DNA from: a virus
Taxonomy: Duplodnaviria > Heunggongvirae > Uroviricota > Caudoviricetes
Length of the DNA: 23,534 bases
Strand: one strand, 5' to 3'
IMG/VR virus record: IMGVR_UViG_2563366895_000003
Span: 1 to 23,534 of that record
Position numbers and translations under genes: made by a program. This document shows positions 1,985 to 23,534 of this stretch, piece by piece; within the stretch, counting starts at the first letter, position 1; each line of letters begins with the position of its first letter. Below the pieces are notes generated by a model. It worked only from the letters and a program-made list of their open reading frames with translations, did no database searches and was not told where the DNA came from.

Positions 1985-2794
1985 TTATTCCTCTGAATTA
2001 TCGATTACACTGTATTCCCCGGTTAATACAGAGGAATCTGCAGGATCGATTGTCAGTGGTTCCTTTTCATCCATTGATACTGCACGCTGGATCTCAATTG
2101 ATACGGGCAGATATTTGAACAGGCGACGAATAGCCGTTTTTTTTGCCATTTCTTCCCAGTGAGTTACCCACGGCCCGTTATTACCAGCTTTACTCTGGCT
2201 GCGCACCAGCTCAATCTGTTTGCGCGTCATAACTTCAAACTGAGTACCTCCGTCTTTCAGTCTTGCGACAGCATAGACGTGGGTAACCGGGGCATCTTCG
2301 TTTTCTCCTGGGCGGTGTATTAACTTTTCATCAAGGCCAAATTCGAAATTAAACTCGTCACCTTCACGGACAACACGGGCTGACAGGCTGGCGATTTGAC
2401 CTGAACGGCGAGCCAGATCAATCATGCCGCGATAGCCAATGATTAGCTGAACGTTTTTTTTACCGCTCTTTTCGTTTTTATTACCAAAAGGCAGTAAATA
2501 TGCATGACCGAGGGCGCTACCGGGCTCAAGTCCGAGCTGTGAACACTGTACGATTGCACTGACAAAACTCATAGTGTCACAGTTTCCTAACGCCGGAACT
2601 TTACGAATTTCTGTGGTGGCGATACGGATCATACGTTCAGCCGTCATATGCCGTGGAAGAGCTGCTGCCAGTTGCTCTTTCATTGATGGCTGGTTAATAA
2701 AACTAATCACGTCGTTATTTTTAATTGCTGCTGGTGCACGGTTTCCCTGAGTTTTTTGCAGATCGGCTTTTGCGATTGGGGGTTGCTTAGTCAT
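1985..2794 (-). CDS. recT: Recombinase RecT (single-strand annealing protein), 269 aa
   Basis: Translation from [28 protein letters not shown] matches RecT as I recall it. Its ATG overlaps the recE stop (ATGACTAA), the arrangement I recall for recE-recT. Confidence 0.92.
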
Positions 2795-5387
2795 TTGCAT
2801 ATTCCTTAGCCCAGCGGGGCAGTGATAACGTCTTAATAGCTGGCCATTCATCGGTATTGAGGCAGTCAGCCAGGGTTCGCAGATTGCGGTGATATTCCAG
2901 CTGACCTGCCAGTTTTGCTTCTTCGCCCATCATGAAAATTTCAACCGGATAACGTCCGCATTCAATAGTTGTGCTGGCAACCAGAAAAACGAAAGTTGGC
3001 TGCACTCCAAACTGTGCTTCATAACCGTCACTGTAGAATGCATCCTGAACGTGATAGCGGTAGTCGTAATAAGCGGTTTTGAATCGTTGAATATCCGCCG
3101 TAGTTTTCACGTCCATGATCCAGTGAAATTCAGGGATAATTTTGTCCGGACGGCACCGACACAAAATTCCTGTTTCAGGATCTTCCCAGTAAATTGATGA
3201 TTCAGCGTGTCCGGCGCTTTCAACAAGCCATTGCCCCAGCGGCAAAGCCATAACGCTTTGATACATGAGTTCAATTTTCCGGCCTTCTTCCGCAGTGATA
3301 ACCGTTTTTCCTGTGCTTGCGCATTCCATCAGAAACGCTTTCTCCTCTTCTTTTCCGGCGTTTGTACGGCGGTTAAATTCAGGTGCTACGATAAAGCGGT
3401 TACTGAATTCTTCCGGTTCAAGTACCCGGCAGTGGAAAGCGGTTCCTAAATCGAGCGTTTTTGTCTTTGTGGTGTCCACGGGGGCATTTTTACGCCACAA
3501 ATACAATGCCGGAGTATCAGCAATGTCATCGAGCTGAGACTTACTGACACCGGGACCCGCGTGGTAATTCTCATTCGAAATTCCGTAATAAATACCTGGC
3601 TCTATGTCTTCTACGATTACGGGATCTGCGACTTTGCCAGTTTCATCACTGCAATCGCGATGCGGATCGCTGCCAGCATTCTCATTGTGCGGATGTTCAG
3701 CGCCTTCCATTTCCTCCGGATCATTTTCCTTAGCTTCAACCTGACTCTCTTCATCGAATGTTTCCTGGTATGTTGCGTCGCCCATCACCGCACCACAGTC
3801 AGGGCAGTTATCCCCGCCAGTCTGGCCGCAGGCATTGCAGGCTATTTCCGGTTCCTGTTGCACTACTGGCTCAGGTTGATTCATATCCGGGCTGGTTTTT
3901 TCCGTTTCTGGCTGGTTCTGGTACACAGAATCGCGAGTCTGGATCCCCTTTACCCATTTCGGATCGTTCGGGTCGCTAATTCCGTCAACAAATTCACCAC
4001 GTGATGCAGCAAGCAATTTATTGGCATCGACAGGATTTTTTGATGGAATGTTTTTCCGGGCTTCATGGAGTTCTGCCCGCAGTTCCTGATATTTCGCATC
4101 AACAGAATTTACCTGTGACTGAGCATCCAGCGGCTGCGTGTCCTGATGATGTTCAGTTGCGTCCGGTTCCATTGTTTCAGTCTCTCCCTGTTCAACTGCC
4201 GTTGTTCCAGATGGTTGCGGTTTTTCTTCATCATCCTGTTTTCCTTCTTCTGTTACTCGCTGCGGCATCGGGGCAGAGGAGCGACCGCAGGCAATATCCA
4301 CGATTTCCGGATCAGGGTTGGCATGATCGGTTTCAGTCAGTACTTTGTTCAGATATTCAGTGACGTGCGCGGGGATGATCTCGATCCCAATTGGTGCTTC
4401 TTTTACGGAAGCAACCACGATGGCGCGGGAATAATCCAGCCCGCCAGGCATGGTGATGAATTTGTCGCGGAAAACAGAAAAGGGCGGTTTATTTTCAGCG
4501 ATAATTTCCTCAATGCGTTTAGCGTGTGCCGGATGAATGTTATAGATGTCCAGATCCATTGAACGGGCCAGTACGCCAGTGGCTACGTCGCGCGCCAGTG
4601 ACGTCAGATCGTGTACGAAACCTTTGCCGCGATCGGTGAGGTTTCCGCCGCCAGCATTAGCACCGGAAGCCGTGCGAGTGATGTGTGAAACACGATTACC
4701 CTTCATCCACTCTTTTGTCAGCAGTCCTCGATCGGTGTAGTCAGCGTTCAGGTATGCTTCGAAAAAAGCAGTTATCAGTCCCAGGTTTGAATTACCAGGA
4801 TTAGGGAAAACTTTGTCAGTGTCACGAACCAGTTTGTGGAGATCGCGAATTTCCAGCGGGTCGAGCAGGCTGGTTTTGTGGGAAACAGCCAGGGCAGTAA
4901 CAGCCGGTAGTTCTTCAGCCCGAGCAATGTGTAATGCCTGGAGTCCGTCGCGTGAAACGTGCGTTACCGGTTTTTCGCTGCCGTGTTGAGCAAGCCAACG
5001 AATGGGCAGTTCCTGGCCAGAAATTGGGAGTAGCATATTCTCCTCAATCTCAGTCATGTCTTCGCCGTTGACGTTGGTATTGCCTTGATAGTGAGCGTTG
5101 TCTGGTGCTGCTCCCGGTTTTAGTTCCCATGTCATGGAGTCTTTGCTGAGTTGATAGCGTTCACTCCAGGTAAAATCGATCTCACCTTCAGCGGGCAGGT
5201 CATTAACGACAGGAAAATTCGTGGCAACAGCTTTAAAATAGCTGCTCAGTTTTTTACCTGACTTAACGATCAGGTAGTCCAGAGTGGCACAGGTCGATTC
5301 AAAATCGTCGCTTGCCCACAGGACGACGTCAGGTTCACCGGATGATTTTTTCGCTTTCCGTAACAGGAAGAGTGGTTTTGTGCTCAT
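2787..5387 (-). CDS. recE: Exodeoxyribonuclease VIII RecE, 866 aa
   Basis: 866-aa ORF. Acidic, repeat-poor N-terminal two thirds and a C-terminal nuclease-type region; GAGG Shine-Dalgarno before the ATG; immediately upstream of recT on the same strand. Confidence 0.92.
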
Positions 5388-8561: not shown

Positions 8562-9230
8562 ATGACAGTTGCTGATTTCAAACGTCCTAAGTTGGAGCTC
8601 CCAAACGGGGCAAACAAACTACTATTACACTCTTGTTGTGCACCATGTTCCGGTGAAGTGATGGAGGCTCTTCAGGCCTCAGGAATCGACTACACCATCT
8701 TCTTCTATAATCCGAACATTCATCCTCAGAAAGAGTATTTGATTCGTAAGAATGAGAATATTCGATTTGCTGAACAACATGGTGTACCGTTTATCGATGC
8801 TGATTACGACACTGACAACTGGTTTGAGCGAGCCAAAGGAATGGAATGGGAGCCCGAACGTGGGAGGCGTTGTACTATGTGTTTTGACATGCGTTTTGAA
8901 CGGACGGCGCTGTACGCCGCTGAAAATGGTTTCAGTGTGATCAGCAGTTCACTGGGCATTTCACGCTGGAAAAATATGCAGCAGGTTAACGACAGCGGAC
9001 GGCGAGCTGTCGCACATTATCCGGGCATGGTGTACTGGGATTATAACTGGCGCAAGCAGGGAGGCTCGTCCCGCATGATTGAAATCAGCAAACGCGAACA
9101 ATTCTATCAGCAGGAATATTGTGGTTGCGTGTATTCACTTCGCGATACCAATTTACACCGCAAATCCCAGGGACGCCCTCTTATCAAAATTGGTCAACTC
9201 CACTACGGTAAAGAAGAAGGGCAGGAATGA
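8562..9230 (+). CDS. queH: DUF208/QueH-like protein (putative epoxyqueuosine reductase), 222 aa
   Basis: N-terminal [11 protein letters not shown] plus [10 protein letters not shown] and YCGCVYS motifs, which I recall as the conserved Cys signature of the QueH/DUF208 family. Single-gene unit with its own flanking non-coding DNA. Confidence 0.65.
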
Positions 9231-12833: not shown

Positions 12834-12909
<76 letters not shown>

Positions 12910-12912
12910 TAT

Positions 12913-12987
<75 letters not shown>

Positions 12988-18897: not shown

Positions 18898-19813
18898 ACG
18901 GCTGCGTGATGAATCAATTGCTCATGCAGTCTGGATATCCCGCTATAGCACTGGTGTGGCTGCCAGAATGGTGAAGATACTGAATGACAGCGATGCGGAG
19001 CTTACAGCTCGCCTGCTGGTAGCACTGGACAGCCTCGATCCTGGTAGTTTTACCGTTACGCGCCTGGAGTCACTTCTGGCGAGTGTCAGAGAGGTTAACG
19101 GGGCTAAAGCGCAGGCGCTCACTATCAACAGGAATGAGGTTAACTCAACCGTTGATTTAACCCTTACAAAGCAATCAGGGACTGGCAATCGTTTTGTTTT
19201 ACAGAACTCAGGTAATGCAGAACTACCGTTTTCTGTCAGGGTGTGGGGTTCCAGTACTCGACAAAACGTTTTTGAGGTTGGAACGTCTGCTGCGTATCTG
19301 TTTTATGCTCAAAAAACATCTTCAGGTCAGCTGTTTGATGTAAACGGTGCTATTAACTGTACAACACTGAATCAGTTATCAGACCGCGAGCTGAAAGACA
19401 ATATTCAGATTATCAGTGACGCAACCGAAGCTATCCGTAAAATGAACGGGTACACCTACACACTTAAGGAAAACGGACTACCTTACGCTGGTGTTATTGC
19501 ACAGGAAGCAATGGAGGCAATACCGGAAGCGGTAGGCTCATTCACTCATTACGGTAAAGAGTTGCAGGGACCAACGGTTGACGGCAATGAATTACGTGAA
19601 GAAACACGTTATCTGAATGTTGACTACGCCGCCGTGACGGGGTTACTTGTTCAGGTCGCCCGTGAAACAGATGATCGCGTTACCGCGCTGGAAGAGGAAA
19701 ATACAACGTTACGTGAAAATCTGGCAACAGCAGGCACCCGGATCACCACTCTGGAAAATCAGGTAAGCGAACTGGTTGCACTTGTCCGGCAGTTAACAGG
19801 AAGCGAACATTGA
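18878..19813 (+). CDS. Chimeric ORF ending in a tail-fibre/tailspike C-terminal intramolecular chaperone (Peptidase S74-like) domain, 311 aa
   Basis: C-terminal half carries LSDRELKDNI ... NGYTYTLKENGLPYAGVIAQEAMEAIPEAV, which I recall as the self-cleaving chaperone motif of fibre proteins. The N-terminal ~90 aa look unrelated to a fibre shaft. Confidence 0.65.
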   Translation: MMQTVNERLRDESIAHAVWISRYSTGVAARMVKILNDSDAELTARLLVALDSLDPGSFTVTRLESLLASVREVNGAKAQALTINRNEVNSTVDLTLTKQSGTGNRFVLQNSGNAELPFSVRVWGSSTRQNVFEVGTSAAYLFYAQKTSSGQLFDVNGAINCTTLNQLSDRELKDNIQIISDATEAIRKMNGYTYTLKENGLPYAGVIAQEAMEAIPEAVGSFTHYGKELQGPTVDGNELREETRYLNVDYAAVTGLLVQVARETDDRVTALEEENTTLRENLATAGTRITTLENQVSELVALVRQLTGSEH

Positions 19814-19852
19814 TATCCTTCAAGCCCTGAAGGAGGCTGTTCCTGGTACGTT

Positions 19853-19996
19853 CAGACTGTTGTTGAGCTGGAGATCGCAACGGAGGAAGAAACCTTGTTG
19901 CTGGAAGCCTGGAAAAAGTATCGGGTGTTGCTGAACCGTGTTGATACATCAACTGCACCTGATATTGAGTGGCCTGCTGTCCCTGTTATGGAGTAA
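19853..19996 (+). pseudogene. Tail fibre assembly protein (Tfa) C-terminal remnant, ~47 codons
   Basis: Reads ...[43 protein letters not shown], in the same frame as and directly after the TGA of the preceding ORF. Resembles Tfa C-termini as I recall them; no start codon of its own. Confidence 0.5.
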
Positions 19997-20011
19997 TCGT
20001 TTTGAGATACG

Positions 20012-20047
20012 CCGCATACACGTTGTATGCAATAACGTGCTGCGGCT
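20012..20047. repeat. Left copy of a 36-bp imperfect direct repeat that is also a palindromic stem-loop
   Basis: CCGCATACACGTTGTATGCAATAACGTGCTGCGGCT; 32 of 36 positions identical to the copy at 22482-22517. Internal stems GCCGCA/TGCGGC and CACGTT/AACGTG. Confidence 0.6.
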
Positions 20048-20099
20048 TGGTAAATTTTAGCTAGTTTCAGCAGGAGACATAAAAAACTTCAATATAAGA

Positions 20100-20888
20100 T
20101 TAAGCATCACGTATTGCCAATCTGATTTTTGACTGATACCAATTGGGGCCTTCTGCAATTATTTCTTCCTCAACATGCATGATGGGATGCATTTCAATTT
20201 CAGAGTTTTTGACTTTCAGATCTAGTCCATGTTTTTTTGAAATTTGTAAAACTTCATTTTTGAAATCCTTATCTGCGAAAGGTGAAATCCTTATTTCTTC
20301 CAACAGATTATTAAGAGATACAGGGACTAGTTTTCCCTTTACAGGTGGAGTGTTAAAGGTATTCTCTTGAAAAATAGCTCTAAACTCTTTTTCGTATTCG
20401 AAAGATGGTCTCTTGTTAAAGAATACATCTGATTCTGGATTGTATTGTTTTATCCAGAAATTTTTGACGTATTTTACGTGTTTTAATTGTAGTTTGTTTA
20501 GATTATTATTTTCAAGTTGGCTTTGGAGGTTTTTTTTCTTTGATTTTATGACAACGCCTTTAGCGGGGTTTTTACAATACAGCTTCCACATAGCTTCAGA
20601 TTCATGTTCGTTACAATGCCAGCAACTTATATATGTCCTCTCGCTTATTTCCTTAAGTGTCTTTAAATTGAATGCCATGAAAGGATCTAAGTCCATGCCG
20701 GCACCATAAGTAGCGCATAGTTTTTCCTGTGTCTCAATGAATTTTTTATAGCCAGTATGTCCCCAAGCAAATTCACCTTCGAACGGATCTTCAAAATTTT
20801 TTGCTGAGCAAAAAAATAAAGCATTTTGTTCGAGTAACATAGAGAATTTCTCTATGTCAAGGTATCGCCATATATACTCAGTGTGCAT
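20100..20888 (-). CDS. DUF2971-family protein, 262 aa, very AT-rich
   Basis: AAGGAG Shine-Dalgarno 5 nt before the ATG at 20888. N-terminal IWRYLDIEKFSMLLEQNALFFCSAKNFEDPFEGEF, then ISCWHCNEHESEAMWKLYC and LKHVKYV, matching the DUF2971 pattern as I recall it. Confidence 0.7.
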   Translation of the reverse strand: MHTEYIWRYLDIEKFSMLLEQNALFFCSAKNFEDPFEGEFAWGHTGYKKFIETQEKLCATYGAGMDLDPFMAFNLKTLKEISERTYISCWHCNEHESEAMWKLYCKNPAKGVVIKSKKKNLQSQLENNNLNKLQLKHVKYVKNFWIKQYNPESDVFFNKRPSFEYEKEFRAIFQENTFNTPPVKGKLVPVSLNNLLEEIRISPFADKDFKNEVLQISKKHGLDLKVKNSEIEMHPIMHVEEEIIAEGPNWYQSKIRLAIRDA

Positions 20889-21017
20889 GATAGCTCCTTG
20901 CAATATAACTATTTCTATCTGTTCATTTGTACTTAAAAAGGATTGAGTAGCCTGAACAGTTCTATCCGTAAATATACCAGATAGAAGAGTTGTACAATAA
21001 CAAATCCTCCGTATAAG

Positions 21018-21056
21018 AACCAGCCATAATAGTCTGGTTCTTAAGGTTTTTTTTGT
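21018..21056 (+). other. Stem-loop GAACCAG-N10-CTGGTTC followed by a plus-strand T8 run, between the two cassette genes
   Basis: Read directly. Terminator-like for plus-strand (antisense) transcription only; on the coding strand it is preceded by an A-run, not followed by a U-run. Confidence 0.4.
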
Positions 21057-21101
21057 TCTAGGGGGGGTTAACCTACGATTCGTCCCCATATCGACGATAA
21101 A

Positions 21102-22304
21102 TCAGGCCTGTACCAACGCTTCTGTTTCTGTGAGTGAAATCTGATAGCGTTTTACTGCCTCAGCAAAGGCGTGCGCGGCATCTGCATTTGATACCATATA
21201 TTCTTCAGTTACCCCTGTTTGAGAATGGAAAGTAATATTTCCATAAATGCAAATAGGGATTTGGTAGTTATCTTTAAAACGACGGTCTGGTGAGCCATTC
21301 TTATTCGTTTTCGCCCATGTATAACCATCTATGCGTGAGTCACTGGGAACACCTTCTTCCTCATGGAATCTTAGATATTCTGAACTAATTTGTAATTCGC
21401 GTAAATCAATCAGAGCGAATGCTCCATCAGCTCGTGGTATGACTGCAACTCCAGGATAAAGCAAAATATCGTCTCCATTCACATTTTCAAACCTCATCGC
21501 ACGCCCTGTAAATTGAATGAGATCCGTTGAACTAAAATCAAAGGTAACTGGGTGACGATTAACAGACCGGGTTGCTAATGTTCTTTCAGCAAACTGGTCT
21601 GTAGCTTTATCTGCAGTAATATCCCATTTTTTGACACTCGATTTTAACATATCAAATGCATGGACCATCGCTGCATATGCGCGCTGTGAAGCATCACTGC
21701 TCTCGAATGTTATGGCTATTTTTGTGCTGTCTTCCCATGAAACTAGGCGAGATATCTCAGCTTGGGTTAGGGGGAGTAGTGTCTCAAGTTCTGCGATGCG
21801 TCGTTTGTAAAACCAACGGAATAGACTTGATTTGCGTCGAGCCAACTCGCTTTTTTGTTTTGATTCTTCGGCAAGAGCCTCTTGAAGATCTGCTTTTATT
21901 TCTGCTCTTTGTTCTCGTGCTTTAGCAATCAAATCTCGTAAAGGTAAAAGGGAGGTACTTGTAAGGACTTCTACCGAAGCGCTGGATATTTCATTCATGC
22001 CAGCTACAGGCATATATATTTTAGCGTTCGATGGTGTATTTTCTGGAGATGACCCAGACCCCAAATGAGGTTCTGTAGGGGCTGGATTTAATGGATTGGT
22101 AACTGAGTATCCATCATCATAGGGCAAGGTAGGTGTAGTATAAGATAAGCCTGTGCCCGGTAATCCGACAGTTGCTCTAACCCCTTTTTTACCAACATTG
22201 ACAGTTGCGCCAGGCACGCCAATGCTTGCACTTATTCCACGCTTGCCAATGTTGAGTCGAACGCCAGGAAATAGAGTAAAGGTTTGTCTGAAACGAAGAG
22301 ACAT
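21102..22304 (-). CDS. DUF4236 N-terminal-domain protein with coiled-coil middle and unassigned C-terminal domain, 400 aa
   Basis: N-terminal FTLFPGVRLNIGKRGISASIGVPGATVNVGKKGVRATVGLPGTGLSYTT is the Gly/basic DUF4236-type repeat pattern as I recall it; a coiled-coil-like stretch follows; C-terminal ~200 aa unrecognised. Confidence 0.7.
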   Translation of the reverse strand: MSLRFRQTFTLFPGVRLNIGKRGISASIGVPGATVNVGKKGVRATVGLPGTGLSYTTPTLPYDDGYSVTNPLNPAPTEPHLGSGSSPENTPSNAKIYMPVAGMNEISSASVEVLTSTSLLPLRDLIAKAREQRAEIKADLQEALAEESKQKSELARRKSSLFRWFYKRRIAELETLLPLTQAEISRLVSWEDSTKIAITFESSDASQRAYAAMVHAFDMLKSSVKKWDITADKATDQFAERTLATRSVNRHPVTFDFSSTDLIQFTGRAMRFENVNGDDILLYPGVAVIPRADGAFALIDLRELQISSEYLRFHEEEGVPSDSRIDGYTWAKTNKNGSPDRRFKDNYQIPICIYGNITFHSQTGVTEEYMVSNADAAHAFAEAVKRYQISLTETEALVQA

Positions 22305-22430
22305 AAAGTTATCCCTATGTAGTTTTGTACACCAAAGTTCGAAATGTTTTTATATGAATATTGAGCTGATTCGTAAGATTATTCCTAGCTCATCTTCATT
22401 CCGCCATGATACAACGGTTTGCTTGCAGGT

Positions 22431-22468
22431 GAAGAAAAACGAAAAAGCCCAATCATGATTGGTGGGCT
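22431..22468 (-). terminator. Rho-independent terminator of the sit operon
   Basis: On the minus strand: stem AGCCCA ... TGGGCT around a palindromic ATCATGAT centre, followed by TTTTTCGTTTTTC. Confidence 0.55.
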
Positions 22469-22481
22469 GGTGGAGTTGAAA

Positions 22482-22517
22482 CCGCAGACACGTCATATGC
22501 AAAAACGTGCTGCGGCT
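22482..22517. repeat. Right copy of the 36-bp imperfect direct repeat/stem-loop
   Basis: CCGCAGACACGTCATATGCAAAAACGTGCTGCGGCT; the four differences from the left copy fall in the loop or bulge positions, leaving both stems intact. Confidence 0.6.
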
Positions 22518-22676
22518 AACTGGTGAACTTTCGATAGTGCGGGTATTGAATGATTTCTAGGCGTTATCGATTTTACGTATTTTTTGCATGATAGAATTCG
22601 TACCTCCTCCCAACGACCTTCCATGGCTTTCCGGACTTCTGTAGGCCGGCGGACGATGTTGTCCTCGGATGTTGTG

Positions 22677-23534
22677 CTAATTGGGTGATAACAGATCCTG
22701 TGTATGGGAGTTTCCCTTTGTGCGTGCGTTGATGCTGGTAACGGTAAACGTCATGATGAACACGACCGCGAATAAGACGACAATCGTCGGAGCTGGTGCG
22801 CTGTCGATAAAAAAGGACAGCCAGACACCAGTCATTGACACTATTACCGATATGCCAGTCGCCAGTAGGAGCGCAATATGAAAGCGTTGTGTCAGGAGTA
22901 CCGCAATGGCGCCAGGCGCAATGAGCAGAGAAATGGAGAGAATGATACCTACCGCTTTCAGCGTCGCCACAATGGTCAGAGAGACCATGCACAGCAGCCC
23001 ATAATGCAGCCATCTCGTATGCAAACCGCTTACCTGCGCCTGTTGATAATCAAAGCTGAACAGCAAAAAATCCCGCCATTTTACGCTAATAACAAGTGTA
23101 ACCAGCCCGGCAATAATCATCGTCTGGATTATATCGCCGATGGTTATCCCGAGCATGTCGCCGAAAAGAATATGGTCAAGATGTACGTCTGGTTTGACCG
23201 CAATATACAAGATCAAACCTGCGGCAAACATGCCAGAAAAAACAATCCCCATCACTGTATCTTGCTTGATTCGGCTGTTGTCTTTCAGGTATCCCGTCGC
23301 CACCGCGCAGAATACTCCGGCGACGAATGCCCCTGTAGCCAAAGGTAACCCCAGAATCCAGGCAAGCACGATGCCAGGAAAAACCGCATGACTCATCGCG
23401 TCACCCATCAGTGCCCAACCTTTCAGGACCAGAAAGACCGACAGCAGCGCACAGGGTATGGAAACTACCAGTGAAATCAGCAGTGCGTGACTCATAAAGG
23501 TGAACTGCAGTGGCTCCAGTAATAATGCCATCAT
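22677..23534 (-). CDS. sitD: ABC-3 family Mn/Fe transporter permease, last gene of a sit-type operon (SitD-like), 285 aa; start coincides with the window edge
   Basis: Polytopic hydrophobic protein with the ZnuB/MntB/SitD-like pattern; followed downstream by a terminator. The MM start is at the last bases of the window, so the N-terminus could extend off-window. Confidence 0.8.
   Translation of the reverse strand: MMALLLEPLQFTFMSHALLISLVVSIPCALLSVFLVLKGWALMGDAMSHAVFPGIVLAWILGLPLATGAFVAGVFCAVATGYLKDNSRIKQDTVMGIVFSGMFAAGLILYIAVKPDVHLDHILFGDMLGITIGDIIQTMIIAGLVTLVISVKWRDFLLFSFDYQQAQVSGLHTRWLHYGLLCMVSLTIVATLKAVGIILSISLLIAPGAIAVLLTQRFHIALLLATGISVIVSMTGVWLSFFIDSAPAPTIVVLFAVVFIMTFTVTSINARTKGNSHTQDLLSPN

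Follow-up and report, generated by a model that had tools for sequence, protein, structure and literature searches.

The window analyzed here, i.e., the whole stretch of 23,534 nt of the IMG/VR record IMGVR_UViG_2563366895_000003, carries a two-gene cassette between a tfa remnant and sitD, and a short repeat is found on both sides of this cassette. The question raised by this locus is what the repeats are and how the cassette came to lie between them. A preliminary description had reported a 36-bp direct repeat matching at 32 of 36 positions (89% identity), each copy of which could form a hairpin, and both points were confirmed by a repeat search and by folding. The search returned two copies with a spacing of 2470 nt and no further copy with up to three mismatches in the window. 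As the same search found nothing in 100 shuffles, and as the hairpin belongs to the large conserved family described below, chance similarity of the two copies was ruled out. On either strand, both copies folded with energies of −17.7 to −20.7 kcal/mol and z-scores of −2.4 to −4.0. The positions of all features are listed in Table 1.

Table 1. Features at and around the cassette, in coordinates of the window
Feature	Position	Strand	Basis and remarks
tfa remnant, 3′ end only	19862–19996	+	RefSeq pseudogene lacking the N-terminus; stop codon 19994–19996
Left hairpin copy	20011–20047		Repeat unit 20012–20047; 15 nt past the tfa stop codon
Cargo gene 2, DUF2971 protein	20100–21089	−	ORF of 329 aa; RefSeq start 20840, 246 aa
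Cargo gene 1, DUF4236 protein, 400 aa	21102–22304	−	Pfam DUF4236, E = 3e-21
Promoter-like site TTCACC-16 nt-TATCAT, upstream of the DUF4236 gene	22406–22433	−	Consensus scan, 9/12
Intrinsic-terminator-like hairpin	22431–22467	−	Palindrome CCAATCATGATTGG, then UUUUUCGUUUUUC on the minus strand; fold of 22425–22530
Right hairpin copy	22482–22517		Repeat and fold; 160 nt beyond the sitD stop
Conserved block, about 62 nt	22518–22581	−	Accompanies right-type hairpins; here downstream of sitD
sitD, last gene of sitABCD	22677–23534	−	RefSeq; transcribed toward the right hairpin

The left copy consisted of an outer stem (GCCGCA/TGCGGC), an inner stem of up to 8 bp and a 5-nt loop, and it folded with −20.0 kcal/mol on the plus strand and −19.0 kcal/mol on the minus strand. 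The right copy had an outer stem (CCGCAG/CUGCGG), a bulged A, an inner stem (CACGU/ACGUG) and an 11-nt loop, the corresponding energies being −17.7 and −20.7 kcal/mol. Against the covariance model of the family, the left copy scored 49.5 bits (E = 2.9e-12) and the right copy 57.2 bits (E = 1e-14). UUUCAAC lay 3′ of the stem on the minus strand of the right copy, and the left copy had no U-run on either strand (UUGG on plus, GUAUCUC on minus). All four differences between the copies had been placed in loop or bulge positions, which was correct for three of them. These three fall in the consensus loop and, in the left copy, lengthen the inner stem to 8 bp. The fourth, at repeat position 6, falls in the stem, where the left copy has T and the right copy G. 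The right copy and the family consensus (38 of 50 distinct copies) both form a G–C pair here, so this pair was lost from the left one. Moreover, the right copy matched the right copies of lambda and of H2 at 33 of 36 positions each, and the left copy matched the lambda right copy and the copy of SCU-104 at 32 of 36 each. As each window copy resembles copies of other phages at least as closely as its partner, a fresh duplication by insertion, of the target-site or att type, was rejected.

The hairpin family was present in 5125 of 5426 complete E. coli genomes, almost always on the chromosome, at a median of 2 places and at most 7 per genome. Its copies were tied to tfa ends, dinI-type 3′UTRs and prophage right ends, in a sample biased to those contexts since anchors within the block or tfa had served to collect half of the loci. 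When a degenerate pattern of the canonical hairpin was searched for, exact matches were confined to Escherichia, Shigella and Scandinavium, lambda contamination aside; most matches outside the Enterobacteriaceae in the contig scan were such contamination, and the scan therefore mainly shows taxonomic restriction. The conserved structured element that had been suspected from two copies was borne out by compensatory changes across about 50 distinct ones. In the family alignment, 89.6% of the cells were paired, compared with 21–51% for slid controls, and the covariation score was 0.155 against 0.102 in shuffled alignments (0 of 500), in agreement with the covariance-model alignment. Some stems were wholly replaced, as in CAGCGGTA/TACCGCTG, CCGCCG/CGGCGG and CTTGTC/GACAGG. 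The mean folding energy of the family was about −17.5 kcal/mol. When folding energy or G–U wobble was used to derive the functional strand, no bias appeared (38 vs 25 sequences, p = 0.15), the wobble counts on the covariance-model alignment being unreliable owing to misregistered bulge-less copies. With no strand preference in the folding energies, an RNA role is inseparable from a DNA role. An Rfam scan of 19800–22750 gave no match on either hairpin; its hits were a partial, sub-threshold match to IS009 in the tfa remnant (19800–19953) and two at chance level.

To describe the context of the hairpins, flanking A/T runs were counted on alignment columns in the 43 distinct non-tfa copies. AAA stood directly 5′ of the stem in 29 of them, and at least two of the three positions were A in 39. 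An A-run 5′ of the stem means a U-run on the minus strand, so that these 29 copies have UUU right after the stem. Most non-tfa copies also adjoined a near-invariant block of about 62 nt, which in most lambdoid phages is the dinI 3′UTR and ends at the dinI stop codon. Its column conservation was 0.8–0.99 over 74 distinct sequences, with part of the stretch having served as a search anchor. RNAalifold gave nothing convincing for the block, and no covarying structure was seen in it. A small ORF in the block was considered and rejected, since the frame that lambda keeps open on the minus strand meets a stop after 10 codons in the window. In the consensus scan, no promoter-like site adjoined either hairpin, the flanks differing between left and right copies, and the block gave no promoter match. 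Hairpin and block behaved together as a gene-linked 3′ module, as seen at dinI, ecpE and sitD. In the case of tfa, other variants of the gene carry canonical terminators at the same position, and the UTI89-type left copy extends into a stem that T6 follows. The hairpin and dinI-type block of the non-tfa copies would accordingly form a putative leftward terminator module. Termination by the two copies of the window may be weak, as the left copy lacks a U-run and the right copy has only UUU, with a separate canonical terminator 14 nt further on. The U-run hairpin at 22431–22467 had previously been taken for the terminator of the sit operon. Since it is missing from strains in which sitD directly follows tfa remnant and hairpin, and recurs by the right hairpin in prophages that have other cargo and no sit genes, this was a mis-assignment. 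Its palindrome also adjoined right-type hairpins at nine other loci with unrelated cargo.

The cargo of the window differs from its surroundings in base composition, with a GC content of 33–43% in the cassette (33–37% in the DUF2971 gene) compared with 48–50% in the flanks. The DUF2971 gene matched Pfam DUF2971 (E = 1.6e-6) and the PADLOC candidate defense family PDC-S31 (E = 2.6e-20). Full-length relatives of the DUF4236 protein among isolated phages were found in Microcystis phages only, at 32% identity. The promoter-like site upstream of its gene is weak evidence, as the count of such sites in the region was not above the shuffled expectation. The rightward late operon ends with the tfa remnant, whose 3′ end together with the left hairpin (19865–20045) was 93% identical to the lambda counterpart.

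The repeat is by no means confined to this cassette and the sit locus. In phage lambda, ea47 is flanked by the same pair of copies in direct orientation (2409–2450 and 3998–4039 of the lambda locus), one lying 12 nt after tfa and the other beyond ea47. The copies were direct in all 34 two-copy loci, and at least six unrelated cargos lay between paired copies, including Ea47, DUF2971 plus DUF4236, a SAM methyltransferase, PD-T4-3 (E = 2e-140), a ClpP-like protein and a 5.3-kb set. PD-T4-3 is a known defense gene. More cargos lay left of the right module. The cargo genes usually stood on the strand opposite to tfa, and none of those examined was a recombinase. Ea47 and the DUF4236 protein, which share the slot, were compared as possible diverged homologues and are unrelated (BLASTP E = 0.32). 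The hairpin pair delimits, on either side, a slot that follows the tail fiber genes and holds interchangeable accessory or defense genes in lambda-like prophages. In lambda-like phages of Escherichia, this slot is situated close to the prophage right end, between the rightward late operon, whose last gene is tfa, and the leftward accessory genes.

Sites that have no cassette were then compared with the window. In SCU-104 and in 335 E. coli genomes, tfa remnant, one hairpin and sitD followed each other in one unbroken alignment. The junction of the empty site is therefore marked by a single copy, as had been predicted, and both junctions of the window map onto it. From the hairpin onward, the sitD region was 95.8% identical to that of SCU-104. 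On the left, homology to SCU-104 and lambda stopped at 20045–20050; on the right, the match with SCU-104, lambda and the K-12 ecpE copy set in at 22482–22490. With lambda it extended to window position 22625, and homology to the thrW island reached 22645. Homology to the dinI-context prophage stopped at 22578–22581, the WL164 segment in common with it covering about 3.5 kb (19094–22578). With homology breaking at the hairpin edges and empty sites retaining one copy, the proposal that the repeat marks recombination junctions was upheld. In three independent comparisons, the switch of homology lay inside or at the edge of the 36–42-nt hairpin. Single-copy forms were clean hybrids of left and right copies with no bases gained or lost, and lambda-like as well as UTI89-like types exist. 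The crossover lay in the 5′ arm in one case (lambda vs locus L097) and at the 3′ end in another (UTI89 vs locus L020). These varying crossover points fit homologous exchange rather than a site-specific target, so the dedicated recombination target suggested earlier was not retained.

From these comparisons, the hairpins are probably terminator-type elements that insulate a cargo slot and at the same time serve as short homology patches for cassette exchange; the roles in termination and recombination are both inferred. The hairpin would be the core of factor-independent terminators. Right-type copies, with their minus-strand U-run after a dinI-type 3′UTR, would end leftward transcripts (dinI, ea31, sitD, and ecpE), and the copy just 3′ of tfa would terminate the late operon. 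Flanked by a copy on either side, a cassette with its own promoter would be transcriptionally insulated. As the copies would be the sole sequence common to otherwise different phages at the slot, homologous recombination between them could insert, delete and swap cassettes, through host RecA or through phage Red/RecET, which accept homologies of 30–50 nt; the prophage of the window encodes recET. In strain WL164, the DUF4236–DUF2971 cassette, which in other settings adjoins dinI or belongs to a thrW island, would thus have been brought beside sitD, the right-hand crossover falling within the right hairpin and block or immediately after them. Against the exchange role counts that RecA works poorly on a patch of 36–42 nt that contains about 10% mismatches.

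Illegitimate recombination, with functional phages selected afterward, can also place breakpoints at module edges. The hairpin might be a passive boundary, i.e., the terminator of a neighboring gene that is inherited with its module, while cassettes move by illegitimate or flank-mediated recombination and selection. This is rather unlikely, although hairpin and block do act as a module linked to dinI, ecpE and sitD, the two copies are old and diverged, and the segment shared with the dinI-context prophage offers longer flanking homology in the tail fiber region on the left. What speaks against passive inheritance is that homology switched at or inside the hairpin in all three comparisons, and that clean hybrid single copies are predicted by a crossover in the patch and unexpected from random joints.

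It is improbable that hairpin and 62-nt block form a dedicated portable module, be it a structure-specific site of cassette exchange, making the slot an integron-like defense slot, or a mobile 3′UTR-terminator RNA element that also lies behind ecpE and sitD. Two readings related to this were weighed. The first is a functional RNA, in which hairpin and block would be a 3′UTR-derived sRNA or an element of mRNA stability or regulation, the repeat being a side effect of its spread. A conserved stretch with a U-run terminator hairpin at a gene 3′ end is the typical layout of 3′UTR-derived sRNAs, and about 62 near-invariant nt beside such a hairpin, 3′ of unrelated genes with the core gene ecpE among them, resemble it. 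This reading is decidedly improbable, as the left copy has no block, Rfam gave no match, the block lacks covarying structure, the U-runs are short, and the invariance of the block comes partly from its use as a search anchor. The second is a dedicated structure- or site-specific recombination system, comparable to integron attC or a folded single-strand att, by which cassettes would enter as one-copy circles. The direct orientation of all 34 pairs, the presence of either one copy or cargo with two, and a structure kept while its sequence varies would suit such a system, as would the deposited annotation of HK633, in which hairpin and block are labeled attP. However, this label goes back to an 85% similarity with the K-12 ykgJ–ecpE spacer across 106 nt, with no identical core. 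No recombinase was consistently adjacent to the hairpins, the window having only intR and xisR at its far end and recE/recT, and the cargo genes being non-recombinase. Moreover, the crossover positions vary, the two copies have 4 mismatches in 36 positions and resemble foreign copies at least as much as one another, and the cargo, in contrast to integron cassettes, comes with a promoter-like site. A site-specific system is therefore very unlikely, and integron attC itself was rejected on the lack of intI in the annotation of the whole window and on the lack of a fixed crossover position, which was the 5′ arm or the 3′ end depending on the case. A REP/BIME-like extragenic palindrome moved by a RAYT transposase, which an imperfect palindrome outside genes and at their 3′ ends could recall, has negligible probability, being effectively refuted by the low copy number and opposed by the ties to phage contexts and the narrow taxonomic range given above.

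The terminator-and-patch reading was also set against known systems. Morons of lambdoid phages were reportedly described by Juhala, Hendrix and colleagues in a comparison of HK97 and HK022. Like a moron, the cassette is an extra unit between sequences that are adjacent in related phages (SCU-104, 335 genomes), and its base composition differs from that of the flanks. A putative promoter and terminator of its own would be the 9/12 promoter-like site (such sites not being enriched over shuffles) and the terminator-like U-run hairpin, and its predicted transcription is independent of the late operon. However, the moron concept needs no repeated boundary, whereas here a covarying hairpin lies on both sides and a single copy at empty sites. 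Conserved linkers are said to have been proposed as guides of lambdoid module exchange in the modular theory of Susskind and Botstein and by Clark et al. for HK620. The hairpin resembles them as a short conserved intergenic stretch at a module junction, with unrelated neighbors and a switch of homology; those proposals mainly concerned early-region junctions and had no structure kept by compensatory change. Intrinsic (Rho-independent) terminators between convergent operons are similar in their stable GC-rich stem-loop at gene 3′ ends, with a minus-strand U-run in most right-type copies here, but ordinary ones form no recognizable sequence family across modules, and the U-runs of the window copies are weak or absent. 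In the T4-type phages RB49 and phi1, promoter-early stem-loops (PeSL) are described as terminator stem-loops flanking non-essential variable genes in plastic regions, with modular shuffling through recombination between copies (PMC2839356). The likeness lies in a repeated stem-loop around variable genes with exchanges between copies (here 34 of 34 pairs direct, at least six cargos and hybrid single copies), and the difference in the strong conserved sigma-70 promoter and many copies per genome of PeSL, compared with no attached promoter and 1–2 copies per phage here. Defense hotspots of P2 and P4 are positions of genetic variation in phage and satellite genomes (PMC9122126), and they share with the present slot a fixed position in temperate phages with highly variable anti-phage cargo, here PD-T4-3 and the PDC-S31-like gene. 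They belong to another phage family and another position, and no repeated hairpin is mentioned in the abstract of that source. In the searchable literature, which does not include the older subscription papers on lambda sequences, no earlier description of the tfa-side hairpin pair or of a hotspot on the tail fiber side of lambdoid phages was found.

The finding reveals no new kind of mechanism. The covarying hairpin of about 40 nt and the 62-nt block provide a sequence handle with which a slot for variable cargo can be located in lambda-like E. coli prophages, a slot whose contents include PD-T4-3, a candidate defense gene (the PDC-S31-like DUF2971 gene), O-antigen-type acyltransferases, methyltransferases and the uncharacterized ea47 of lambda, and which also adjoins the sit iron/manganese transporter. 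This handle can be used for mining prophages for new accessory and defense genes. Moreover, the hypothesis that short structured boundary repeats insulate cassettes and mediate their exchange is testable in lambda, the best-studied phage.

The 36-nt direct repeat on either side of the two cargo genes was confirmed: its copies are identical at 32 of 36 positions, both fold into a hairpin on either strand (−17.7 to −20.7 kcal/mol; z-scores of −2.4 to −4.0), and with up to 3 mismatches no third copy was found in the window and none in 100 shuffles. The preliminary description had placed all four differences in loops or bulges; this needed correction, as position 6 (T vs. G) is G–C-paired in both the right copy and the family consensus. 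The left copy starts 15 nt past the stop codon of an annotated tfa remnant, and the right copy lies 160 nt beyond the sitD stop. The GC content of the cassette is 33–43%, compared with 48–50% in the flanks. The window is identical to E. coli WL164 and spans an entire defective Rac-like prophage, comprising intR, xisR, ralR, recT, recE, kilR, lysis genes, trkG, terminase and portal gene remnants, a tail-fibre gene, and the tfa remnant, beyond which sitDCBA, uspF, and ompN follow. A queH-like gene and, upstream of the lysis genes, two tRNA genes are also annotated within it. The tfa remnant gave a sub-threshold match to Rfam IS009 (RF02111; 90.5 bits, gathering score 117, model positions 65–199); because of this match, that "sRNA" family seems to have been built on the 3′ coding part of tfa. 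No Rfam family matched the hairpin.

Positions of the features discussed, in window coordinates unless another locus is named
Feature	Locus	Position	Strand	Remark
recE, recT, ralR, kilR	window	1985-5387		intact
queH-like gene	window	about 8562-9230
tRNA genes (Thr, Gly)	window	12834-12987
Match to Rfam IS009	window	19800-19953	+
tfa remnant	window	19862-19996
Left hairpin copy	window	20012-20047
DUF2971 protein gene	window	20100-21089	minus	between repeat copies
DUF4236 protein gene	window	21102-22304	minus	between repeat copies
Hairpin with U-run	window	22431-22467
CCAATCATGATTGG palindrome	window	22447-22467
Right hairpin copy	window	22482-22517
Conserved block	window	22518-22581 (to ~22645)
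Conserved block	K-12, NC_000913.3 302500-305500 (L293)	1715-1811
Conserved block	HK633 (L009)	2499-2598
sitD	window	22677-23534	minus
sitABCD	window	22677-23534 and beyond
sitABCD	L001	8978-12427
PD-T4-3 between two hairpins	L140	10670-12334

Hairpin copies were gathered independently of the hairpin sequence, using anchors in the 3′ end of tfa and in a conserved block downstream of right-type copies (those not directly behind tfa). Nearly all copies collected in this way showed the hairpin fold. Among the 52 distinct copies, standard pairs occupied 89.6% of pair cells, compared with 21–51% when the 3′ partner was slid, and changes on both sides were present at 6 of the 11 pairs. The covariation score was 0.155 vs. 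0.102 after shuffling, and none of 500 shuffles reached the observed value. A covariance-model alignment of 81 matches (50 distinct) agreed with this result. Wholly rebuilt stems were present in some copies (CAGCGGTA/TACCGCTG and CCGCCG/CGGCGG), and a new inner stem, CTTGTC/GACAGG, in some. These compensatory changes across the family show that the hairpin structure is conserved and under selection, which bears out its initial description as a conserved structured element. As the folding energy revealed no strand preference, the selected structure is assignable to plus-strand RNA, minus-strand RNA, or DNA alike.

Using a 44-nt query around the left copy, relatives were found in 5125 of 5426 complete E. 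coli genomes, with a median of 2 and a maximum of 7 hairpin places per genome, nearly all chromosomal. This low copy number rules out a REP element and contradicts the earlier suggestion of a REP-like dispersed element. In a UTI89 prophage, the hairpin lies immediately behind tfa, with a second one about 1 kb onward; in K-12, it lies between ynaM and uspF at the right end of Rac; and in SCU-104, a single hairpin lies between the tfa remnant and sitD. Phage lambda has two direct copies, one 12 nt past the stop of tfa (orf-194) and the other between ea47 and ea31, and its ea47 is bracketed exactly as the window cassette is, Ea47 and the DUF4236 protein being unrelated. The repeat is meaningful, as had been proposed, but it occurs generally in lambda-like prophages and is not peculiar to this cassette. 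When one genome per species was scanned for the exact pattern, the canonical hairpin was confined to Escherichia, Shigella, and Scandinavium. Matches in other taxa were rejected as lambda DNA contamination, with two copies 1589 nt apart and several on ~48.4-kb contigs. The contaminated assemblies included Chromatiales, Pseudomonas, Streptomyces, Bacillus, Shewanella, and others, some with low-coverage contigs (loci L249, L256, L265, L272, L281, L289, and L290 among them).

A 451-nt chimeric query was composed of the left flank, half of each copy, and the right flank. It gave one unbroken full-length alignment at 90.3% identity in all 30 best records listed, and in 335 genomes at least 80% of it was covered at one site, consisting of the tfa remnant, one hairpin, and sitD. 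A single copy marks the cassette-less junction, as the preliminary description had anticipated; in SCU-104, which was examined, both window junctions (19909–20050 and 22482–23534) map to the one hairpin (2903–3042 and 3005–4060 of that locus). The cassette lay beside sitD only in WL164 among the 30 best matches to the occupied form; in the others it lay by a dinI-like gene and tRNA-Pro or in a thrW island. Homology to lambda ends at window position 20045 and restarts at 22482. Base-by-base triplets revealed that single-copy forms are clean hybrids of left and right copies: an ea47-less lambda-like phage follows the lambda left flank to the first ~9 nt of the hairpin and then the lambda right copy, and in a UTI89-like phage lacking the methyltransferase, the sequence agrees with the left copy up to and including the loop, the switch coming at the 3′ end. 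Variable crossover points within a short shared patch are a signature of homologous recombination, not of fixed-site cleavage. Since the crossover points vary between cases, we infer that cassettes are exchanged by homologous recombination; breakpoints fall within the hairpin. A fresh duplication was rejected because foreign copies resemble the window copies at least as closely (33/36 for the lambda right copy) as these resemble each other (32/36).

WL164 probably arose when a tail-fibre/tfa/cassette segment recombined into a Rac-like, sit-carrying prophage, since window positions 19094–22578 are 95.9% identical to a dinI-context prophage and the sequence from 22482 on is 95.8% identical to sit-context strains. 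The right crossover would lie in or just past the right hairpin and block, and candidate agents are the prophage's own recET, lambda Red, or host RecA. The intact recE and recT constitute a short-homology recombination system, and the element that encodes it is also the one with short-patch exchanges in its cargo slot.

When 147 fetched hairpin-containing loci were surveyed for copy number and cargo, two copies were found in 34, direct in all 34. At least six unrelated contents occupied these intervals: lambda Ea47; the DUF2971 and DUF4236 pair; a class I SAM methyltransferase accompanied by another tfa remnant (23 loci); PD-T4-3, an experimentally defined defence gene (PADLOC, E = 2e-140); a ClpP-like protein; and a 5.3-kb set with 494-aa and 317-aa ORFs, by eye a putative hydrolase and omptin. 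At the locus of PD-T4-3, a GIY-YIG nuclease, the left copy lies behind a Pin-type invertase gene, not tfa. The DUF2971 protein matched the PADLOC candidate defence family PDC-S31 (E = 2.6e-20), and no PADLOC model matched the DUF4236 protein. Further cargos, one of them a 348-aa ORF that is acyltransferase-like by eye, occur in other prophages, where they are flanked by a different tfa/pin module and the right-hand module. The DUF2971 ORF has 329 aa from the first ATG vs. 246 aa in RefSeq (start 20840), so with the later start about 260 nt separating the two cargo genes are assigned to neither. The sit operon sits between a prophage-type hairpin/block and uspF; as the equivalent Rac-end hairpin of K-12 lies 416 nt from uspF without this operon, sit looks like cargo at the right end of the Rac-like prophage.

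An A-run usually precedes the stem on its 5′ side in copies not directly behind tfa (of 43 distinct copies, 29 have AAA and 39 have at least two A among the three bases), and on the minus strand a U-run thus follows the stem-loop of these copies. In the window, the U-run of the right copy is weak and the left copy has none. To the right of non-tfa copies lies a nearly invariant block of about 62 nt, which reaches the dinI stop codon in most phages and is therefore the dinI 3′UTR there; nothing convincing was found in it as a structure or ORF of its own. Hairpin and block also occur downstream of ea31 in lambda, sitD in the window, and the core gene ecpE in K-12, and the depositors of HK633 annotated them as attP. 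Other tfa variants have canonical intrinsic terminators at the position of the hairpin, and the UTI89-type left copy has a lengthened stem followed by T6. Together, the A-/U-runs, the dinI 3′UTR setting, these terminators, and the UTI89 T6 suggest that the hairpin is a terminator core where leftward and rightward transcription converge, with a putative terminator or insulator function.

A second window hairpin, 14 nt left of the right copy, is formed by the palindrome CCAATCATGATTGG with a minus-strand U-run. It had been taken for the sit terminator, a reading that was abandoned because it is absent where the tfa remnant, hairpin, and sitD are contiguous and moves with the cassette into sit-less contexts. 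Nine other loci, with neighbour genes unrelated to the cassette, also have it next to a right-type hairpin. The palindrome is perfect, is followed by (G)AGTTGA, and recurs immediately left of right-type hairpins (L143, L166, L183, L184, L199, L232, L244, L268, and L276). As the U-run is missing in several of these loci, the palindrome may be more than a terminator.

The cassette resembles a moron in being inserted between sequences that otherwise adjoin; its base composition deviates, and it carries a terminator-like hairpin and a promoter-like site of its own. An integron attC site was rejected, there being no integrase and no fixed crossover. The closest mechanistic analogue found for the hairpin pair is the PeSL system of T4-type phages, in which repeated promoter-stem-loop terminators flank variable genes, recombine, and shuffle them (PMC2839356). 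Unlike the PeSL elements described there, the hairpin has no conserved promoter and only one or two copies per phage. No published account of the hairpin pair or of a tail-fibre-side hotspot in lambdoid phages was found in the literature searched, and an earlier mention in older lambda sequence papers is possible. The hairpins were grouped with structured repeats that serve as boundaries or terminators at moron junctions. Their proposed role is testable in lambda, and they are useful chiefly as a handle by which cargo and defence genes can be mined.
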